From Geotalea uraniireducens Rf4 (GTDB taxonomy: Bacteria; Desulfobacterota; Desulfuromonadia; Geobacterales; Geobacteraceae): a stretch of 32,000 bases of DNA. A program made the translations under genes and the position numbers. The stretch covers positions 2,580,001 through 2,612,000 of the forward strand of contig NC_009483.1 of the NCBI RefSeq assembly GCF_000016745.1, read 5' to 3'. Numbering within the stretch: position 1 is the first letter of the stretch; every line of letters begins with the position of its first letter. The notes beneath the pieces are model-generated. The model searched no databases. It was given only the letters and a program-made list of their open reading frames with translations, and was not told the DNA's origin. This document shows, piece by piece, positions 4,776 through 31,459 of this stretch.

Positions 4776-6188
4776 TTAAATGTCGAAGTAAAGGGCGAAT
4801 TCGAGGGGAACCGGACGCATGCGAACCGGATTAACCTCTGCTTCAGTCTTGTACTCGATCCATTTCTCGATAACGTCAGGTGTAAAGACGTCTCCCTTGA
4901 GGAGGAATTCGTGGTCTTCCTTAAGGGCACTGAGTGCCTCTTCAAGACTCCCCGGAGCTGAAGGAATGTGGGCAAGCTCTTCAGGAGACAGGCCGTAAAT
5001 ATCCTTATCCAGCGGCTGGCCCGGATCGATCTTGTTTTCGATGCCGTCAAGACCTGCCATCAGCATTGCGGCAAATGCCAGATATCCGTTGCAGGAAGGG
5101 TCCGGAGTACGGTATTCGATACGCTTCGCCTTCGGATTGGAGGAGAACATGGGGATACGGAGCGACGCAGAACGGTTACGGCTGGAATAAGCCATGTTCA
5201 CCGGAGCTTCGAAACCTGGCACCAGACGCTTGTAGGAGTTGGTGGTCGGGTTGGTGAATGCGCACAGGGCACGGGCATGCTTGATGATGCCGCCGATGTA
5301 GTAGAGGGCCATTTTGGAAAGCCCACCGTAGCCGTCGCCGGCAAAGAGGTTGGTACCGTCTTTCCAGAGCGACTGGTGGCAATGCATACCGGAACCGTTG
5401 TCGCCGTAAAGCGGCTTCGGCATGAAGGTAGCGGTCTTGCCGTTTCTGTTGGCCACGTTTTTGATGACGTATTTGAACCACTGCAGGTCGTCAGCCATGG
5501 CGACGAGCGAGTTGAAACGCATGTCGATCTCGGCCTGGCCGCCTGTGGCAACTTCATGGTGCTGACACTCGACACGGATACCGACCTTCTGCAGTTCCAT
5601 GACCATCTCGTTTCTCAGGTCGTTCTGTGAGTCGGTCGGAGAAACGGGGAAGTAGCCTTCCTTGTGACGCGGCTTGTAACCCAGGTTGGGGAATTCTTCG
5701 CGACCGGTATTCCAGGCGCCTTCTACGGAGTCGACGGCGTAGAAAGACTGGTTGGCAGTCGAATCGTAGCGAACATCGTCAAAGATAAAGAATTCGGCTT
5801 CCGGTCCGAAGTAAGCGGTATCGGCAATAGCTGTGGACTTCAGGTACGCCTCTGCCTTGCGTGCGATGTTACGCGGGTCGCGGCTGTAGTCTTCCTTGGT
5901 GATCGGATCGAAAATGTTGCAGATCAGGCTCAGGGTAGGGATAGCAGTGAATGGATCCAGTTTGGCGGTGGTCGGATCAGGTATAATGATCATGTCGGAT
6001 GCGTGGATAGGCTGCCAACCGCGGATGGAGGAGCCGTCGAAGCCCTGACCTTCTTCAAAGGTATCTTCGCCGAACTCACTCATGGGCACGGTAAAATGCT
6101 GCCAGATACCGACAAAGTCCATAAATTTGAAATCAACCATCAGTACGCCGTTTTCTTTGGCAAATTCTACTACTTGTTTTGGTGTCAT
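4776..6188 (-). CDS. glnA: Glutamine synthetase, type I
   Basis: 470-aa protein with classic GSI motifs ([40 protein letters not shown]). AAGGAG lies upstream of the ATG. Confidence 0.97.
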
Positions 6189-8669: not shown

Positions 8670-8679
8670 CGGCCAGTCC

Positions 8680-8703
8680 CCATCAACCATCTACCATCTA
8701 CCG
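8680..8703 (-). repeat. Heptad array, family 1: aaaCGG TAGATGG TAGATGG TTGATGG (minus-strand reading)
   Basis: The plus strand reads CCATCAA CCATCTA CCATCTA CCG. The hrpB TAG stop (8698-8700) lies inside the first unit. The array fills the 28-nt gap between the convergent M23 and hrpB genes. Confidence 0.8.
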
Positions 8704-17085: not shown

Positions 17086-17160
17086 TGGTGATCCCAAGGG
17101 GACTTGAACCCCTGTTACCGACGTGAAAGGCCGGTGTCCTAACCGCTAGACGATGGGACC
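17086..17160 (-). tRNA. tRNA-Glu (anticodon UUC), CCA encoded
   Basis: The reverse complement is GGTCCCATCGTCTAGCGGTTAGGACACCGGCCTTTCACGTCGGTAACAGGGGTTCAAGTCCCCTTGGGATCACCA. The anticodon loop is CTTTCAC, and the sequence closely resembles the E. coli tRNA-Glu layout. Confidence 0.93.
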
Positions 17161-17198
17161 TGAATATCGGTGAATGGTGAATAGTGAATGGTGAATGG
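17161..17198 (+). repeat. Heptad array, family 1: TGAATAT CGG TGAATGG TGAATAG TGAATGG TGAATGG (plus-strand reading)
   Basis: Read directly in the 101-nt spacer between the two tRNAs. It is followed at 17228-17255 by two copies of CTTCACTTTT(T)CAT, which is partly complementary (GTGAA/TTCAC). Confidence 0.8.
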
Positions 17199-17261
17199 TC
17201 CCCAAAAACTTTCATATCCCGCTCACACTTCACTTTTCATGCTTCACTTTTTCATTTTTAA

Positions 17262-17335
17262 TGGCTGGGGTGCGAGGATTCGAACCTCGGATGACGGAGT
17301 CAGAGTCCGTTGCCTTACCGCTTGGCGACACCCCA
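17262..17335 (-). tRNA. tRNA-Gln (anticodon CUG), CCA encoded
   Basis: The reverse complement is TGGGGTGTCGCCAAGCGGTAAGGCAACGGACTCTGACTCCGTCATCCGAGGTTCGAATCCTCGCACCCCAGCCA. The anticodon loop is CTCTGAC. Confidence 0.93.
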
Positions 17336-17969: not shown

Positions 17970-17982
17970 GAAGATTGCTCCT

Positions 17983-18027
17983 GTAGGCGAACGGCGTTCG
18001 CCCAGGGCGCATGCAATGCGCCCCTAC
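17983..18027 (-). repeat. REP-like nested palindromic element (outer stem TGTAGG/CCTACA enclosing two GC-rich hairpins)
   Basis: The minus strand reads TTGTAGG GGCGCATTGCATGCGCC CTG GGCGAACGCCGTTCGCC TACAGG. The hairpins are at 18005-18023 and 17986-18002. The korB TAG stop lies in the outer stem and the korC SD (AGGAG) follows immediately. Confidence 0.7.
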
Positions 18028-18767
18028 AAATTCTCCGTATTCTTGAACACTCCCAACCTGAAATAGTCGCACATTTCCGTGCCGACCCGTGAGTTTGCCA
18101 TGAGCGGGTTCAGCCCCCAGTTGGTCGGGCAAGAGGAAAGCGCCTCGATAAAGGAAAATCCTTTTCCTTCCACCTGATACTGAAAGGCTTTTTTGATCTG
18201 CTTTTTGGCGTCCATCAGGTTCTTGGGCGAATTAACCGCCACCCGCGCAGAGAATGCCACACCTTCCAGTTGCGACAGAAGTTCGGCCATCCTGATGGGT
18301 GCCCCGTCCTTTGACTGATTTCTGCCGTAGGGGGAGGTTGAAGTTTTCTGACCGACCAGGGTGGTCGGCGCCATCTGCCCACCAGTCATTCCATAGGTCG
18401 TGTTGTTAACGAAAATAACGGTAATATCTTCGCCACGGTTAGCAGCATGGATAATTTCAGCAGTGCCGATGGCAGCAAGGTCCCCGTCACCTTGATAGGT
18501 AAAGACGAAGCTCTCCGGCTTCGCCCGTTTCACACCGGTCGCCACCGCTGCAGCGCGGCCATGGGGCGCCTCCACAACATCGACATCGAAATAGCCGTAG
18601 AGAAAGACCGAGCACCCGACCGACGCAACGCCGATGGTCCGTTTCTGCACGCCAAATTCATCCATCGCCTCGGCAACGAGACGGTGAATCGTGCCATGGT
18701 GACAACCCGGGCAGAAATGGGTCTGCACGTCCTTCAGACTTACCGGCTTTTTGAAAACCTGCTGCAT
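18024..18767 (-). CDS. korB: 2-oxoacid:ferredoxin oxidoreductase, beta (TPP-binding) subunit
   Basis: FCPGCHHG and GDGD...NN TPP-binding motifs are present. The start was set to the ATG at 18767 (MQQVFKKPV..., GAGGT 8 nt upstream). The 25 extra codons in the ORF track are translated heptad repeats. Confidence 0.88.
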   Translation of the reverse strand: MQQVFKKPVSLKDVQTHFCPGCHHGTIHRLVAEAMDEFGVQKRTIGVASVGCSVFLYGYFDVDVVEAPHGRAAAVATGVKRAKPESFVFTYQGDGDLAAIGTAEIIHAANRGEDITVIFVNNTTYGMTGGQMAPTTLVGQKTSTSPYGRNQSKDGAPIRMAELLSQLEGVAFSARVAVNSPKNLMDAKKQIKKAFQYQVEGKGFSFIEALSSCPTNWGLNPLMANSRVGTEMCDYFRLGVFKNTENL

Positions 18768-18786
18768 AGAAAAACCTCGTAAAATG

Positions 18787-18903
18787 GGGATCAGGGATCG
18801 GGGAACTGGGACCAGGGACTTGGGATCGGGGATCAGTAACAAACTCTAATCCGCCAGTTCCCAGTTCCCAGTTCCCAGTTCCCAGTTCCCAGTTCCCAGT
18901 TCC
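18787..18903. repeat. Inverted pair of 7x7-nt arrays. Left: GGGATCA GGGATCG GGGAACT GGGACCA GGGACTT GGGATCG GGGATCA. A 19-nt spacer follows. Right: (CAGTTCC)x7
   Basis: Counted base by base. The left array spans 18787-18835 (degenerate), the spacer 18836-18854, and the right array 18855-18903 (perfect). It fills almost the whole korA-korB spacer. Confidence 0.95.
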
Positions 18904-18906
18904 CAA

Positions 18907-19962
18907 TCAATAATATTTCCTGATCTGCTCAAACAGTTCTTCAGGAGTCGGAAGCGATCCGGCTCCCGGTGGTCTACCGTAAAAATAAACCTCCGCATCC
19001 CTGGCGACGGAAAGTCGGACGTCTTCAACCATCTGGCCGGTGTTGAGCTCGATATCAAGCACCTTTTTACATTGTTGCGTCGCCTGCAGCAAAGCCTTTT
19101 CCGGAAATGGAAAAAGGGTTACGGGTCGTAGCAATCCGACCTTGAGTCCCGCATCTCTCGCCATCAGGACGGCAGTTTTGACAATCCGCGCCGTGGAGCC
19201 GAAGGCAGTGACCAGCAGTTGGGCATCGGCAGTCTCGAACTCTTCCCAGCGGGTCTCTCTTTCCTTCAGTTCCTGATACTTTGCATGCAGCCGCCAATTA
19301 TGGGCTTCCAGTTCACCATCGCCGAGAAAGAGGGATTTGACGACCCGCTGTTCACCGTCACCCTTCCCCCTGACCGCCCAATCCTTGGGAGGAAGTTTTG
19401 TTTCCGGCCTTCTGTTGGCGACAAGGGCTTCCTTCATCTGTCCCACGACCGAATCACCCAGGACCATGGCCGGCATCCGGTAAATGTCGGCAAGGTCAAA
19501 AGCAAGCATGGTGAGGTCGTACATTTCCTGAACCGATGCAGGCGCCAGCACAACGATATGATAACCACCGTGACCGCCTCCCTTGACTGACTGGAAATAG
19601 TCGGCCTGTGAAGCATCGATGCCGCCGAGTCCGGGGCCGGAACGGGAAATATTGACGATGACGCCTGGCAACTCGGACCCTGCCATATAAGAAATTCCCT
19701 CCTGCTTAAGGGAAATCCCGGGGCTCGATGACGATGTCATGGCACGTACGCCGGTTGCGGACGCGCCCAAAAGCATATTGATGGACGCAATTTCGCTTTC
19801 GGCCTGAATGAATTCTCCGCCGAGCTTGGGCAATTCACGGGAAAGGTATTCCGGGATGTCGCTCTGGGGAGTGATCGGATAGCCGAAATAGTAGCGACAG
19901 CCGGCCTCTATGGCAGCCATTGCAACGGCCTCGTTCCCTTTAACAAACAAACGCTTTGCCAA
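18907..19962 (-). CDS. korA: 2-oxoacid:ferredoxin oxidoreductase, alpha subunit
   Basis: ...[28 protein letters not shown]... is typical of the POR/KOR alpha N-terminus. I chose the TTG at 19962 ([11 protein letters not shown]) because GGAGGT lies 5 nt upstream; the ATG at 19992 has no SD. Confidence 0.88.
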
Positions 19963-20083
19963 ATGTACCTCCGGTAACATCAACTGAAACAATAACTAAT
20001 ACTACACTACAAATTTTACATAAAAGCAGGAAACTATATCCCTGTTCAAATAGCTTGTCTGCAATAAGTTGTTTTCAGAATTA

Positions 20084-20479: not shown

Positions 20480-21049
20480 ATGGCCTCAACATTACTGGAA
20501 CTTACTGCCAACATCGTCTCTTCACATGCATCTGTATCAGAGATGTCCGGTGAAGAACTACTTCAGGAACTGCAAAAAGTTTATTCTGCATTGCAAAAAC
20601 TTGAAACCGTCCCTGTAGAAACTGGTGAACAAGCTGAAGTGAAAACTCCGGCAATCTCCCTTAAGAAAGCCTTTCAACCCGACCAGGTATCCTGTATGAT
20701 CTGCGGCAAGACCGGCATGAAGACCCTTGCCCGCCACCTGGCACAGGTACACAATATGAAGCCGGGTGCATACAGAAAGCAGTTCGGCATTCCCAGCACC
20801 CAGGCACTCACCGCCAAGAATTTTTCAGAAGCCAGAAGAAAAATGGCCCAGGACAGGGGACTTGCCGATAATCTGGCAAAAGCCAGAGCCGTAAGAGCTG
20901 CAAATATAAAGGCAAAAACAGCCGCACCGGAAAAAGCGGCCAAGGCAGCAAAAACAGCTCCCAAGGCAGCTCCAAAAGCAGCAGCAAAAGCTGCGCCTAA
21001 AGCAAAACCGGTAACGGCAAAAGCCGCACCAAAGGCAAAAAAGGCATAG
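20480..21049 (+). CDS. mucR: MucR/Ros-family zinc-finger transcriptional regulator with a Lys/Ala/Pro-rich histone-H1-like C-terminal tail
   Basis: ...VSCMICGKTGMKTLARHLAQVHNMKPGAYRKQFGIPSTQALTAKNFSEARRKMA... aligns by eye to the Ros/MucR C2H2 domain. AAGGAGGA lies upstream of the ATG. The tail is KAKTAAPEKAAKAAKTAPKAAPKAAAKAAPKAKPVTAKAAPKAKKA. Confidence 0.88.
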   Translation: MASTLLELTANIVSSHASVSEMSGEELLQELQKVYSALQKLETVPVETGEQAEVKTPAISLKKAFQPDQVSCMICGKTGMKTLARHLAQVHNMKPGAYRKQFGIPSTQALTAKNFSEARRKMAQDRGLADNLAKARAVRAANIKAKTAAPEKAAKAAKTAPKAAPKAAAKAAPKAKPVTAKAAPKAKKA

Positions 21050-22246: not shown

Positions 22247-23059
<813 letters not shown>

Positions 23060-25321: not shown

Positions 25322-27949
25322 CTACAGATGCTTCAACCTCTCCCTGACCATACCCAGTTCGTCATCCCGACTTACAACCTGACCGTTCAGTCGTGCTTTT
25401 AAGACTACATCCAGAAGCTCCCGATAGAGTGGCCCGGCTGGCACCCCGAGTCGTTTAAGGTCTTCACCGGAAATCAGGCAGCGGACACCCTGCAATTGGG
25501 TAAAATAGAGTGAGATGCATTTTTTGGCATCGTCACTGCCGGTTTTCGCCATCAGATAGAGAAGAATCTCCACCGGCAGATCTTTCAACCAGAAATATAT
25601 TTCGCTTTTTGCTACCCGCCCCCCCCGCGCCACCTTCATTTCCATGATCTCCAGCACCTCTTCACCCCGCCTGCGCATCTCGAAGAGCTTCTCCTTGTAA
25701 TGCTCGTTAACGGCCAGCCGCGTGCAAGCCCCCCACAACATATCGTCAGTCAGGGACTCGCATAGGGTAAGGAAATATACCACCCAACGCTCATAGGCCC
25801 GATCGAGAAAGAGGAGATCAAACCAGGAAATGATTTTCCGGGCGTCTTCCAAAACAGTGCGTGTCCGTGCGGTCATCTGGAGTTCAGGATGAATGAAGCG
25901 CAAAAGGCCGAGGGCCGACAACCTCTCCACCGCTTTGAACGGTTCTTTTTCACGCAGAATATAAACGAGTTCGGTCAAAAGGCGCTTACCGCCGAGTTTC
26001 TCCAGAAAATCCATTTTTACCGCATTCTTGATCAGGTTTTCCGTATGCTTGGCAATATGAAAATCAAGCCGCTGCTCAAAGCGAATGGCGCGGAACACCC
26101 GGGTCGGATCTTCAACAAAGGAGAGATTGTGCAGCACGCGAATAAGCCGGTCCTGCAAGTCGCGGTGCGCGCCGAAATAGTCGATGAGCAGGCCGAATTC
26201 AGAATTGTTCAGGCGGATGGCAAGGGTATTGATGGTGAAGTCGCGACGGTAGAGATCCATCTTGAGGGAGGAACGTTCGACAGTCGGAAGAGCGCCCGGC
26301 GAAACGTAATACTCCAGCCGGGTGCTGGCCACATCGACCTTGAATCCGTCGGGAAAAACGATCACGGCCGTGCCGAATTTCTCGTGGCTCTTGACACGGC
26401 AGCCGAACTCAGCGGAAAAGGTCTCGGCAAACAGGATGCCATCCCCCTCCACAGTCACATCTATGTCATAATTTTCGTTATTCAACAGGAGGTCCCGGAC
26501 AAAACCGCCGACCGCGTAAACAGGCAGGTCCAGACGGTCCCCGACCCGACCCAGATCACGCAGCACCTGCAATACCGTCGGCGAGATATGCTTGTTCATC
26601 AAGCCGGATATTTCCTTGCTGCGCAGCGGCGTTGCGTCCCTTGCCAGGTCGTATAGGGAGTCGCCACTGTACAAGTAACGCAAGATATCGGTACGGGTCA
26701 CGACGCCCACCAGGTTGCCGTCGGCCAAAACCGGCACGAGACGCCGGTTCCGGCCGACGATATAGTCTTGGATATCGCTGATCGGGGTGGACGGTTCAGC
26801 CGACATGAACTCCGAATGCATGTAGTCGCTGACTGGCACATGGCCGAGATTGTGGTAGAGAGACTTTTCAACAATACGCCGGGAAATGACCCCGACCAGC
26901 CGTTCCCCGTCCATCACCGGCATGGCGTTGACGTTATACCTGGTCAAGAGCTCGCGGGCCTCCTCGATGGTGGCATCGGCGGAAATGATTTTCACCGGTG
27001 ACGACATGATATCGCTTGCAACACGCCGTGGATTTACCCTGTTCCGCAAAATCTCTTCCAGCTTTTCCAGCACCTGGATCAGAGTCAGGTCCTTCACCGT
27101 AGCAGAAGCAGCCGAGGCGTGTCCCCCTCCACCGAATTCGTGAAGGATCTCACTCATATTCACCTCGGGGACGCGGCTCCTGGCGACGATGTAGACCCGG
27201 CTCCCCATGCCGACCACGAGAAAGAGGGCCTGAAGGTTCTCCATGTCCCGCATCATGTGTGCAAGAGCGGCGATGTCCCCGATATAGTAGTCGACTGACG
27301 CATGGGCGATAGAGACATCGACACCGTTCAGATTGGTCGTCTTCAGTGATTTCAGCAGGTCGTTTAGCAGGGAGACCTGCTCTACGGTCAGCTCCTGGGT
27401 GATGAAATCGGCAACGGTGTTCAGATTGGCGCCCCGCTCCAAAAGCCATGCGGCAGCATGATAGTCATCTACCGTCGTGGAGGGAAAGGTGAGGCTCCCG
27501 GTATCTTCGTAGATGCCGAGCATCATCAGCGTCGCCTCTGTGGCATTCACCTCGATCCACTTCTCTCGTAGTATGCCGGTAAGGATGGTGGTCGAGGAGC
27601 CGCTCACGCGGATTACCCCGCCAGTGGAAGCGATGTCGCCCGATGATTCGGGGTGGTGGTCATAAATATGGATTTCAAGACCGGGCCGGTGCAGAATCTC
27701 GGCAAACCTGCCGATGCGGGAAGAGTGTTGGCAATCCACCAGGATCAGTCGCGTTACCTGGTCAAGATCGAGATCTTTGAAGCGGGTGAAGTTGAGCACG
27801 TAGCTGGTGGATTTAAGAAAAAAGTCGCGCATGCTCTTTTCCTGGGCGCCGGAAAACACCATAGCCGCATCGGGATAGAGCTTTTTGGCGGCCACCATGG
27901 CCCCCAGACAGTCGAAATCAGCATTAACGTGGGTGGTAATTACGTCCAT
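25322..27949 (-). CDS. Multidomain DHH/DHHA1 - CBS pair - polyA-polymerase-family tRNA nucleotidyltransferase (CCA-adding enzyme type)
   Basis: The N-terminus has HVNADFDCLGA and the DHH motif (IYDHHP). The middle has tandem CBS domains (IMSSPV..., DYMHSEF...). The C-terminal half has the nucleotidyltransferase head GGFVRDLLL...DIDV...RRDFTIN. Confidence 0.88.
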   Translation of the reverse strand: MDVITTHVNADFDCLGAMVAAKKLYPDAAMVFSGAQEKSMRDFFLKSTSYVLNFTRFKDLDLDQVTRLILVDCQHSSRIGRFAEILHRPGLEIHIYDHHPESSGDIASTGGVIRVSGSSTTILTGILREKWIEVNATEATLMMLGIYEDTGSLTFPSTTVDDYHAAAWLLERGANLNTVADFITQELTVEQVSLLNDLLKSLKTTNLNGVDVSIAHASVDYYIGDIAALAHMMRDMENLQALFLVVGMGSRVYIVARSRVPEVNMSEILHEFGGGGHASAASATVKDLTLIQVLEKLEEILRNRVNPRRVASDIMSSPVKIISADATIEEARELLTRYNVNAMPVMDGERLVGVISRRIVEKSLYHNLGHVPVSDYMHSEFMSAEPSTPISDIQDYIVGRNRRLVPVLADGNLVGVVTRTDILRYLYSGDSLYDLARDATPLRSKEISGLMNKHISPTVLQVLRDLGRVGDRLDLPVYAVGGFVRDLLLNNENYDIDVTVEGDGILFAETFSAEFGCRVKSHEKFGTAVIVFPDGFKVDVASTRLEYYVSPGALPTVERSSLKMDLYRRDFTINTLAIRLNNSEFGLLIDYFGAHRDLQDRLIRVLHNLSFVEDPTRVFRAIRFEQRLDFHIAKHTENLIKNAVKMDFLEKLGGKRLLTELVYILREKEPFKAVERLSALGLLRFIHPELQMTARTRTVLEDARKIISWFDLLFLDRAYERWVVYFLTLCESLTDDMLWGACTRLAVNEHYKEKLFEMRRRGEEVLEIMEMKVARGGRVAKSEIYFWLKDLPVEILLYLMAKTGSDDAKKCISLYFTQLQGVRCLISGEDLKRLGVPAGPLYRELLDVVLKARLNGQVVSRDDELGMVRERLKHL

Positions 27950-28752: not shown

Positions 28753-28767
28753 GGCACACTCCTTGGA

Positions 28768-28894
28768 AGCGGTGAATGGTTGATAGTCGATGGTCGATGG
28801 CAATACAATAAACATTGTAATCCATAAACCATCGACCATCAACCATCGACCGATTTTACCATCGACCATCGACCATCGACCATCGACCGATTTA
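28768..28894. repeat. Three family-1 heptad modules. One is on the plus strand: CGG TGAATGG TTGATAG TCGATGG TCGATGG. Two are on the minus strand: aaatCGG TCGATGG TTGATGG TCGATGG TTTATGG, and TAAatCGG (TCGATGG)x4
   Basis: Counted base by base. The G-rich arm spans 28768-28800. A 28-nt loop contains the inner palindrome TACAAT-aaac-ATTGTA. The C-rich arrays span 28822-28856 and 28859-28894. The scpB TAA stop (28892-28894) is part of the last header. Confidence 0.95.
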
Positions 28895-30263: not shown

Positions 30264-30278
30264 GGGTGTGAGGTTACT

Positions 30279-30327
30279 CCGTTTTCCTTTGTCCTCGGTC
30301 CTTTATCCTCGGTCCTTCGTCCTGGGT
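30279..30327 (-). repeat. Heptad array (NNNNAGG type): ACCCAGG ACGAAGG ACCGAGG ATAAAGG ACCGAGG ACAAAGG AAAACGG (minus-strand reading)
   Basis: Seven units (49 nt) start 4 nt after the trpS TGA and end 15 nt before the scpA ATG. The plus strand reads CCGTTTT CCTTTGT CCTCGGT CCTTTAT CCTCGGT CCTTCGT CCTGGGT. Confidence 0.9.
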
Positions 30328-30331
30328 TTGA

Positions 30332-31315: not shown

Positions 31316-31438
31316 TTAATAGAGACTCCTTTTCAGTAGTTGTCCAAAGCAGGGTACGTCACTACCATCCACCATCCACCATCCACCATCCACCATCCAC
31401 CATCCACCATCCACCATCCACCATCCACCGCCGACCAT
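31316..31438 (-). CDS. Candidate 40-codon Trp-rich upstream ORF/leader peptide ([40 protein letters not shown])
   Basis: I translated this by hand; it is below the 60-aa cutoff of the ORF track. The ATG at 31438 is preceded by AAGGCGG at -10 to -4. The frame passes through the (TGGATGG)x9 array. Its TAA (31316-31318) directly abuts the trpS ATG (TAAATG), and the trpS SD AAAAGGAG lies inside it. Translation is unproven. Confidence 0.3.
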
Positions 31439-31459
31439 CGACCGCCTTTACCGCCTTTA
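31365..31459 (-). repeat. Heptad array, family 1: TAAaggCGG TAAaggCGG TCGATGG TCGGCGG (TGGATGG)x9 (minus-strand reading)
   Basis: Nine perfect CCATCCA units on the plus strand at 31365-31427 were verified unit by unit. They are followed by CCGCCGA CCATCGA and two copies of the 9-mer CCGCCTTTA. The M50 protease TAA stop (31457-31459) lies in the first header. Confidence 0.97.

Follow-up and report, generated by a model that had tools for sequence, protein, structure and literature searches.

Convergent heptamer repeat arrays between the alpha- and beta-subunit genes of a Geotalea uraniireducens oxidoreductase operon, with a predicted RNA hairpin

The spacer between the alpha- and beta-subunit genes (korA and korB) of a 2-oxoacid:ferredoxin oxidoreductase operon in Geotalea uraniireducens Rf4 carries two arrays of seven-nucleotide repeats, arranged as an inverted pair. 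It lies in a 32-kb stretch of contig NC_009483.1 (positions 2,580,001 to 2,612,000), the whole of which was analysed and is here called the window. We consider that the spacer probably, though by no means certainly, holds one convergent inverted pair of a lineage-wide class of heptamer simple sequence repeats (SSRs) in transcribed spacers, and that the relevant structure is a long RNA hairpin. The paired arrays are far above chance, and the hairpin, which already formed part of an earlier reading of this DNA (the preliminary description), is supported as a predicted fold.

The paired arrays and their predicted fold

Both genes are on the minus strand. The gap from the alpha-subunit stop to the beta-subunit start, read base by base, is 18768-18906 (139 nt), and the positions given in the preliminary description for the stop, the start, both arms and the loop proved exact on re-reading. 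In the mRNA sense, the 5' arm consists of seven GGGAACT units in phase, running from 18904 down to 18856, with its onset 2 nt past the stop; on the plus strand it reads (CAGTTCC)x7, 18855-18903. Tandem Repeats Finder reports it at 18854-18905, with a period of 7, 7.4 copies, 100% matches and a score of 104. The 3' arm is degenerate. Its sense units are TGATCCC, CGATCCC, AAGTCCC, TGGTCCC, AGTTCCC, CGATCCC and TGATCCC, corresponding on the plus strand to GGGATCA, GGGATCG, GGGAACT, GGGACCA, GGGACTT, GGGATCG and GGGATCA, and the same program places it at 18787-18836 (7.1 copies, 74%). Beyond this arm the sense order is CAUUUUAC, the Shine-Dalgarno (SD) sequence GAGG, seven bases, and the beta-subunit ATG (18767-18765). 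The SD is ~8 nt past the last C-rich heptad, and is hence outside the main stem, while 19 nt separate the end of the antisense G-rich arm from the ATG.

Over 49 nt, 78% of the positions in the two arms are complementary, or ~5.4 of the 7 in each unit, against an earlier estimate of about five. A search for (GGGAACT)2 with up to two mismatches gave 8 matches in the window, all of them in this spacer, against 0.30 expected. The motif is absent elsewhere in the window and from 160 loci fetched from relatives (given L-numbers below), except for a short-read contig of the same species, L081, in which the 19-nt segment between the arms is unchanged. An 82-aa open reading frame (ORF) running through the repeat (18658-18906) was rejected as a repeat artefact: it overlaps korB in another frame, and relatives have nothing that corresponds to it.

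The sense RNA is predicted to fold with an energy of -67.2 kcal/mol (z = -4.5), and none of 200 shuffled sequences was as stable. The spacer alone gives -65.2 kcal/mol (z = -6.2). The long imperfect hairpin that had been proposed is thus borne out by the fold prediction.

The preliminary description also named a G-quadruplex (G4) as the alternative to the hairpin. As a functional element, a three-tetrad G4, formed by (GGGAACU)7 in the mRNA and/or by the opposite-strand GGGAnnn DNA, would tune korB translation, mRNA stability or transcription. We regard such a functional G4 as improbable. It is correct that the canonical motif, (G3+ N1-7)x3 G3+, is present in the spacer and on both strands: the G3-N4 x4 pattern has 8 matches in the window, all of them here and 4 on each strand, against 0.03 expected from shuffles. 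DNA oligonucleotides of closely similar units, (GGGAATC)n and (GGGGACT)n, fold into K+-dependent G4s in vitro (Rehm et al., 2015, PLoS One 10:e0144275, PMC4692102). In addition, the G-rich arm is the first to be transcribed. The competition between the two structures was assessed with ViennaRNA, with G4 energies switched on. The isolated 5' arm, at -8.7 kcal/mol without a G4, reaches only -13.6 kcal/mol when the predicted G4 forms, and the minimum free energy (MFE) structure is predicted to be a G4 only in nascent transcripts of ~40-110 nt, in which the C-rich arm has not yet been made. For the full spacer the structure is unchanged, and the hairpin stays the MFE structure by about 50 kcal/mol. 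G4 prediction had been put forward as a check on the G4 claim, and its outcome is unfavourable, with -67 kcal/mol for the hairpin against about -14 kcal/mol for the G4 arm. In duplex DNA, moreover, the complementary strand competes.

The comparison with other spacers also argues against a G4. The G4 reading fails on a refuting condition that the preliminary description had itself set, since the G3 heptads are absent or replaced in close relatives. When the 24 long orthologous spacers were scanned, the G3 x4 motif was found in just two, both among the 15 that bear heptads, namely those of the window and of L005. Within the window, G3 units occur in 1 of the 7 heptad-bearing spacers, the alpha/beta spacer. 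The other arrays (GGTGAAT, GGTCGAT, GGTTGAT, GGATGGT and AGGACNR) fill the same niche without G3 tracts, and this speaks against G4 capacity as the property that unites the arrays. RNA G4s are reportedly depleted and poorly tolerated in bacteria. At most, a three-tetrad G4 may form in the G-rich arm transiently, before the C-rich arm is transcribed, and it is not the feature that is conserved.

Other structures and signals were also considered. As single-stranded DNA, the spacer folds with -27.6 kcal/mol (z -4.7). A DNA cruciform was rejected, since this weak fold, together with the 22% mismatches and a centre of 19-26 nt, makes extrusion from duplex DNA unlikely. An intrinsic terminator or attenuator was also rejected, there being no GC-rich stem directly followed by a sense-strand U-run. 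No terminator-like site is found in the spacer on the minus strand, where there is merely UUUU, 2 nt past the stem. No sense-strand promoter was found in the spacer either; a single promoter-like match on the plus strand, inside the perfect arm, is at chance level. With the Rfam covariance models, three tRNAs alone pass the gathering thresholds in the window, and no family was found in the spacer.

Turnover of heptad arrays in relatives and across the window

Orthologous alpha/beta spacers were compared at 81 loci. Most of them (52) are 0-20 nt long, and consist essentially of the SD alone, while 5 are 21-49 nt and 24 are at least 50 nt, the long ones being mostly from the closest relatives. 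Of the 24 long spacers, 13 are most self-similar at a period of 7. These have the same organisation as in the window, namely a G/purine-rich arm, then a loop, then a complementary C-rich heptad arm. The stem begins 0-7 nt past the stop codon in 12 of the 13, and 21 nt past it in L004. At the other end, the predicted stem stops 2-17 nt before GAGG in 11 of the 13; the spacer-only fold reaches the SD in the window and in L007. Orthologous heptad-pair spacers with other units are 58-127 nt long. The repeated unit is not the same in all genomes, being GGTTCGA in L001, GGGAMCN in L005, GGCACCG in L004 and L006, GTGAAAN in L009, GGCAAAA in L010 and L011, and TTGAGTT in L024, with others elsewhere. 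The closest relative, L001, has flanking coding DNA that is 86-87% identical, and yet its spacer is 87 nt rather than 139 nt and has a different unit.

A 3' arm of the YGATCCC type is common to the window, L002, L003, L005, L020, L082 and L085. Since this arm is shared and (GGGAACT)n is found nowhere else, the degenerate arm would appear to be the older and the perfect arm the more recent. The perfect (GGGAACT)7 arm looks from its sequence like a recent homogenisation or expansion, and this supports the preliminary description, which had proposed the same. The only records of identical KorA and KorB proteins come from two Logan short-read assemblies, SRR29904083/84. It is worth adding that the contigs from these assemblies, evidently of the same species (L081 1-30), break on both sides inside the perfect (GGGAACT)n, which implies that such arrays are systematically missing or truncated in k-mer assemblies and metagenome-assembled genomes. 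An exact-match scan of metagenome contigs with the loop sequence gave no match, and the best identity in a protein-anchored metagenome scan was 89%.

The two arms change together. In an arm-swap test, the duplex energies of native 5' and 3' arms were compared with those of between-genome chimeras by permutation. The mean is -0.91 kcal/mol per nt in native duplexes and -0.65 in chimeras (p~5e-5), and the native partner arm ranks first of 15 in six genomes. A simpler comparison of arm unit consensuses proved too crude, giving matches of 3-7 out of 7 within genomes against a between-genome mean of 4.0 out of 7.

The preliminary description had presented the array as special to one central-metabolism spacer. 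This is not the case, as at least six other spacers in the window bear heptads (Table 1). Arrays are found in 6 of the 18 co-directional spacers, in 1 of the 2 convergent spacers and in neither of the 2 divergent ones. The period-7 score of the array-bearing spacers is 0.71-1.0, against a maximum of 0.62 in 190 coding control windows, and perfect period-7 tandems are the sole long-period class in excess. In the single arrays the sense strand is the G-rich one, and the repeats start 0-8 nt past a stop codon. Convergent inverted pairs are present at three sites in the window (kor, tRNA-tRNA and scpB-Memo), and every pair seen in the window and in related loci is convergent, with none divergent. 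An RNA-level polarity, in which the G-rich arm comes first, was considered and rejected: an inverted pair reads G-then-C on both strands, and the arm order is therefore the 'convergent' arrangement of Rehm et al. and not a polarity of transcription.

The tRNA site is a heptad hairpin that is not translated, flanked by tRNA-Gln (17262-17335) and tRNA-Glu (17086-17160). Its sequence is conserved in L001, L005, L010 and L011, and other relatives have unrelated spacers of 7-72 nt. Analysis of base-pair covariation on this hairpin found only 1 compensatory pair, the GTGAA/TTCAC cores being simply conserved. RNase III might process the two co-transcribed tRNAs at the long duplex that lies between them.

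Further heptad arrays were seen in relatives. The next spacer of the operon (beta/gamma) has its own convergent GTGAAAR/YTTTCAC pair in L003 (5869-5925), L005 (5957-6033) and L007 (3028-3106), and this type of unit also occurs in the alpha/beta spacer of L009 and in the tRNA spacer. In four Geomonas loci (L043, L049, L061 and L065), where the alpha/beta spacer is 19 nt, there is a (TAGAACN)x4 array just past the beta-subunit gene, at ~5855-5889, and the heptad habit thus reaches beyond the closest clade. A perfect run of (AGAAGGT)x12 occurs in an uncultured Desulfuromonadales contig (L027, 8451-8533), and its G-rich strand is the one that bears the co-directional flanking ORFs.

Such turnover raises the question of whether the arrays have any role. 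They may be a neutral by-product, in which frequent heptamer slippage lets arrays pile up in untranslated spacers and gives a roleless hairpin, with its symmetry coming from fold-back or template-switch errors. We think this unlikely as it stands, although far from negligible. The rapid turnover and change in length are in its favour, as are the occupation of all kinds of spacer, including tRNA-tRNA, and the unrelated housekeeping genes adjoining the arrays, as in Rehm et al. (PMC4692102). Slippage has indeed been suggested as the cause of the excess of heptamers (Mrazek 2007, as quoted by later papers). On the other hand, the lengths of the arms match (51-52 nt each in the alpha/beta spacer and 31/31 nt in the tRNA spacer), the arms co-vary, the pairs are without exception convergent, and the SD is left free in most heptad-bearing orthologs. 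These features point to at least purifying constraints on what is tolerated.

Our own preference, for a convergent pair whose relevant structure is the RNA hairpin, has a number of points against it. Some relatives have weak hairpins (z of +0.4 to -1.4 in L002, L003, L006 and L011), the metagenomic relatives L082 and L085 have decayed G-rich arms, and relatives with a bare spacer of 8-19 nt manage with no hairpin at all. Near-neutral birth and decay fits these weak, decayed and absent hairpins as well as selection does. The co-variation of the arms could be mechanical, resulting from quasipalindrome template switching, without selection. The presence of the same hairpin architecture between two tRNA genes implies that any general role is independent of translation. 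Finally, the MFE structure of the sense RNA has an ensemble frequency of only 0.003, which is because the repeated arms can pair in several registers, and RNA G4s can be kinetically trapped in a way that lies outside the thermodynamic folding model. A near-neutral status, in which an array is tolerated if it folds back, is a serious alternative. The uneven strength of the hairpin across orthologous spacers (z from -7.7 to +0.4), together with the decayed arms, suggests that the hairpins expand, decay and are renewed in a cycle, and are not strictly conserved.

A different proposal is that the repeats form an array of binding sites, with one protein monomer per 7 nt, recognised either in DNA, by a global regulator, or in RNA, by Csp, S1 or a CsrA-like protein. 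The strict 7-nt phase, retained despite the drift in sequence, would fit this, as would the position of the single arrays, on the sense strand and 0-8 nt past stop codons. Similar proposals have been made by Aklujkar et al. (PMC2700814) for a global regulator in G. metallireducens and by MacGregor (PMC4679880) for TAACTGA repeats in RNA. However, the units differ both between sites of one genome and between orthologous sites, so that there is no common recognition sequence, and paired arms would be sequestered in a duplex. We therefore rate a binding array as very improbable.

The flanking operon and other features of the window

The coordinates of the features discussed are collected in Table 1.

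Table 1 Features of the alpha/beta spacer, its flanking genes and the other heptad-bearing spacers of the window
Feature	Coordinates	Strand	Basis or remark
Alpha subunit (POR_N + PFOR_II), 'korA'	18907..19992	minus	Pfam, NCBIfam
Alpha-subunit stop codon TGA	18907..18909	minus	2 nt upstream of hairpin
Whole predicted RNA hairpin, ~47 bp, mismatches at 7-nt phase	18780..18906	minus	RNA fold
5' arm (mRNA sense), perfect (GGGAACT)x7	18855..18903	minus	Sequence and Tandem Repeats Finder
Non-repeat segment of 19 nt, predicted apical loop and short apical helix	18836..18854	minus	
3' arm (mRNA sense), seven degenerate C-rich heptads	18787..18835	minus	Sequence and Tandem Repeats Finder
Beta-subunit Shine-Dalgarno GAGG	18775..18778	minus	7 nt before ATG
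Beta subunit (thiamine pyrophosphate (TPP)-binding), 'korB'	18024..18767	minus	Profile matches
tRNA-Gln/tRNA-Glu spacer: (GTGAAnn)x4, loop, (nnTTCAC)x4	17161..17261	minus	Convergent pair
scpB-Memo spacer: perfect (GGTCGAT)x4, degenerate GGTYGAT arm, loop, CCATCGA-type arm, then SD	28753..28891	minus	
M50-peptidase/trpS-like spacer: perfect (GGATGGT)x9.4	31316..31456	minus	Sense G-rich, past M50-peptidase stop
bioB-bioD spacer: GGTTGAT / GCGGTTGATGGTCG units	22247..22328	+	Sense G-rich, 1 nt past bioB stop
trpS-like/scpA spacer: degenerate single array, sense AGGACNR units	30264..30331	minus	
Short array overlapping hrpB stop (GGTAGAT/GGTTGAT)	8670..8702	minus	Convergent genes

The operon, which lies on the minus strand, encodes a four-subunit 2-oxoacid:ferredoxin oxidoreductase, with genes for the delta (ferredoxin), alpha, beta and gamma subunits. 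The alpha-subunit gene is on record as a called gene of 357 aa, and has an alternative ATG start at 19980. Of the alpha subunit's 80 best genomic relatives, nearly all belong to the Geobacteraceae or Desulfuromonadales, and the top one has 93% amino-acid identity. The names korA and korB, used in the preliminary description, agree with the Geobacter literature, in which the orthologous operon is called 2-oxoglutarate:ferredoxin oxidoreductase (Gmet_1361 = GSU1467). NCBIfam, on the other hand, favours the VorB-like (3-methyl-2-oxobutanoate dehydrogenase) subfamily, the only one in which the alpha subunit is above the cut-off (559 bits, with a cut-off of 399); it is below the cut-off of the 2-oxoglutarate synthase equivalog models. 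The 'kor' label is reasonable but not proven, and the substrate rests on Geobacter genome annotation rather than on the NCBIfam models.

The adjoining korB-korG spacer (17970-18023) has no heptads. It contains two short GC-rich palindromes, GTAGGGGCGCATTGCATGCGCCC and GGCGAACGCCGTTCGCC, framed by GTAGGGG...CCTAC in a manner that recalls REP elements, and a similar hairpin, GTAGGGGC...GCCCCTAC, is found at the same position in L083.

Could the arrays themselves have entered the spacer as a mobile or dispersed palindromic element (REP/BIME- or MITE-like)? They are intergenic, lie next to a stop codon, form a hairpin and are restricted to a lineage; heptad hairpins of the GTGAA/TTCAC type recur at different spacers in different genomes, and the palindrome in the korB-korG spacer is GTAG-headed and REP-like. 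Yet (GGGAACT)2 has the narrow distribution described above, every site in the window has a unit peculiar to it, neither terminal inverted repeats nor target duplications nor conserved heads were seen, and the perfect tandem blocks indicate growth in situ. An inserted element is hardly credible on this evidence.

Some further features of the window may be noted. In the string of genes M50-peptidase / trpS-like / scpA-scpB / Memo, heptad arrays fill every spacer, two of them with perfect blocks. A regulator of the Ros/MucR family (20480-21049, plus strand) has a lysine/alanine/proline-rich tail resembling histone H1 (…AAPKAAPKAAAKAAPKAKPVTAKAAPKAKKA), encoded by a tandem repeat of period 12 at 20949-21004. 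A large fusion protein on the minus strand (25322-27949) combines DHH/DHHA1, two CBS domains, and the head domain of a poly(A) polymerase/CCA-adding enzyme together with its RNA-binding domain.

Known heptamer repeats and possible roles

Among the closest described classes is that of Rehm et al. (PMC4692102), who reported GGGAATC SSRs in Xanthomonas and GGGGA(C/T)T (STRR1-type) SSRs in Nostoc/Anabaena. These occur in excess between aligned ORFs and seldom between divergent ones, with the G-rich strand being the coding strand up to 50 bp past a stop codon, or the non-coding strand up to 50 bp before a start. Each Xanthomonas genome has 70-75 convergent inverted pairs capable of forming a stem-loop. 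Related genomes differ in the length and sequence of the arrays but agree in their type (single or pair), and both in-vitro G4s and an association with housekeeping genes were reported (PMC4692102). The alpha/beta spacer resembles this class in most respects. It has head-to-tail 7-nt units with a G3 tract, in agreement with both positional rules (2 nt past the stop and 19 nt before the ATG); it has a convergent pair with 78% complementary arms and a predicted stem-loop; and its orthologs vary in length and unit but keep the pair type. The differences are in the units (GGGAACT and GGGATCR/GGGACCA/GGGACTT, which are one-base relatives of GGGNATC / GGGGA(C/T)T), in the phylum (this being Geobacteraceae), and in the number of units (7, against a preferred 4). 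In addition, most heptad arrays in this genome have no G3 tracts.

Within the same bacterial family, Aklujkar et al. (2009, PMC2700814) described the Gmet_H4## elements of G. metallireducens, which consist of four tandem GGGACCG heptads at 49 sites. They are mostly 3' of one gene and 5' of the next co-directional gene, sometimes with two in one spacer, and an action at the RNA level was proposed; other heptanucleotide families are listed there too. The co-directional position within an operon and the GGGAnnn units (with GGGACCA among those of the spacer) are shared with the present arrays. The Gmet_H4## elements are, however, a multicopy family of four units that can be aligned by BLAST, whereas the alpha/beta spacer has 7+7 private units. 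The orthologous oxidoreductase operon is not in their element list (Table S4; PMC2700814). A search for Geobacter-specific G4 or SSR literature found nothing beyond this paper.

The only experimentally dissected mechanism for a structure of this kind is that of the hmw 5' untranslated region (UTR) of Haemophilus influenzae (NAR 2025, PMC12721329). There, the transcript of an (ATCTTTC)n array base-pairs with a G-rich tract; RNase III cleaves the resulting long RNA hairpin, and both expression and change in repeat number depend on the cleavage. Competition between G4 and hairpin is discussed in the same paper. The two systems have in common (here by prediction) a perfect heptamer SSR arm and a non-identical complementary tract that form a long imperfect hairpin. 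They differ in that hmw concerns the 5'-UTR of a phase-variable adhesin, as against an intercistronic spacer in a housekeeping operon, and in that the SSR arm of hmw is pyrimidine-rich and 5', with the G-rich arm 3'.

Two further types of repeat are of interest. MacGregor (2015, PMC4679880) described direct repeats of the heptamer TAACTGA in marine Beggiatoaceae, cyanobacteria and Bacteroidetes, and proposed post-transcriptional roles for them. Like the present arrays, these are abundant heptamer arrays in intergenic positions near translation signals, in phylogenetically scattered lineages, but they have one A/T-rich unit, fixed across the genome, are almost always direct (with one indirect repeat) and are immediately upstream of start codons. 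The same paper quotes Mrazek to the effect that heptanucleotides are the most abundant class of long SSR in many bacteria, possibly as a result of polymerase slippage.

The REP/BIME elements of enterobacteria (for example in malE-malF) form hairpins past stop codons within operons, where they can shield the upstream mRNA from 3' exonucleases and modulate the expression of cistrons. REPs are conserved sequences of 20-40 nt with a GTAG head, present in hundreds of near-identical copies and mobilised by RAYT transposases. The similarity lies in the hairpin-forming repeats just past a stop codon inside an operon, and the difference is that the alpha/beta arms are private tandem heptads grown in situ.

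We hypothesise that heptad arrays arise and keep changing through slippage, and that the pairing of their arms would be upheld either by selection or by quasipalindrome template-switch correction. Folding would loop out the insert of ~125 nt and keep the distance from the stop codon to the next ribosome-binding site at ~20 nt, as in the ancestral short spacer, for which the relatives with a bare 16-nt alpha/beta spacer are the point of comparison. Expression of the beta subunit would thereby stay coupled to that of the alpha subunit. The duplex of ~47 bp is also a plausible substrate for RNase III, or a barrier to 3' exonucleases, by analogy with the Haemophilus hmw heptamer-repeat hairpin.

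A stronger proposal, to which we give only a low probability, is that heptad hairpins constitute a functional, lineage-wide layer of RNA structure in the operons and tRNA clusters of Geobacteraceae, with selection acting on pairing and on the 7-nt phase, and not on the sequence. The hairpins might then be modules for RNase III processing or for stability. Alternatively, the spacers might be 'Rho-shielded', since the always-convergent order would mean that the C-rich arm is never exposed unpaired, whichever strand is transcribed. Changes in repeat number may also be RNA-dependent, as they are for the Haemophilus hmw repeat.

In cyanobacteria, STRRs were already known in 1990. The class as a whole, with its positional rule, convergent pairs and in-vitro G4s, is already published, and what is new here is the lineage and the private unit. 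The alpha/beta locus brings to three the number of phylum-level lineages that share this architecture and its positional rules. The hairpin and the 7-nt phase persist across relatives while the sequence of the unit and the G3 tracts do not, which argues against either G4 formation or sequence-specific binding as the unifying principle, and points instead to pairing of RNA (or of single strands). The oxidoreductase operon itself is probably little affected in practice, given that the insert is predicted to loop out and to leave the ribosome-binding site free. If the heptad hairpins are indeed a functional layer of RNA structure, there would be a common explanation for the convergent-pair and stop/start-proximal rules in Xanthomonas, Nostoc and Geobacteraceae.

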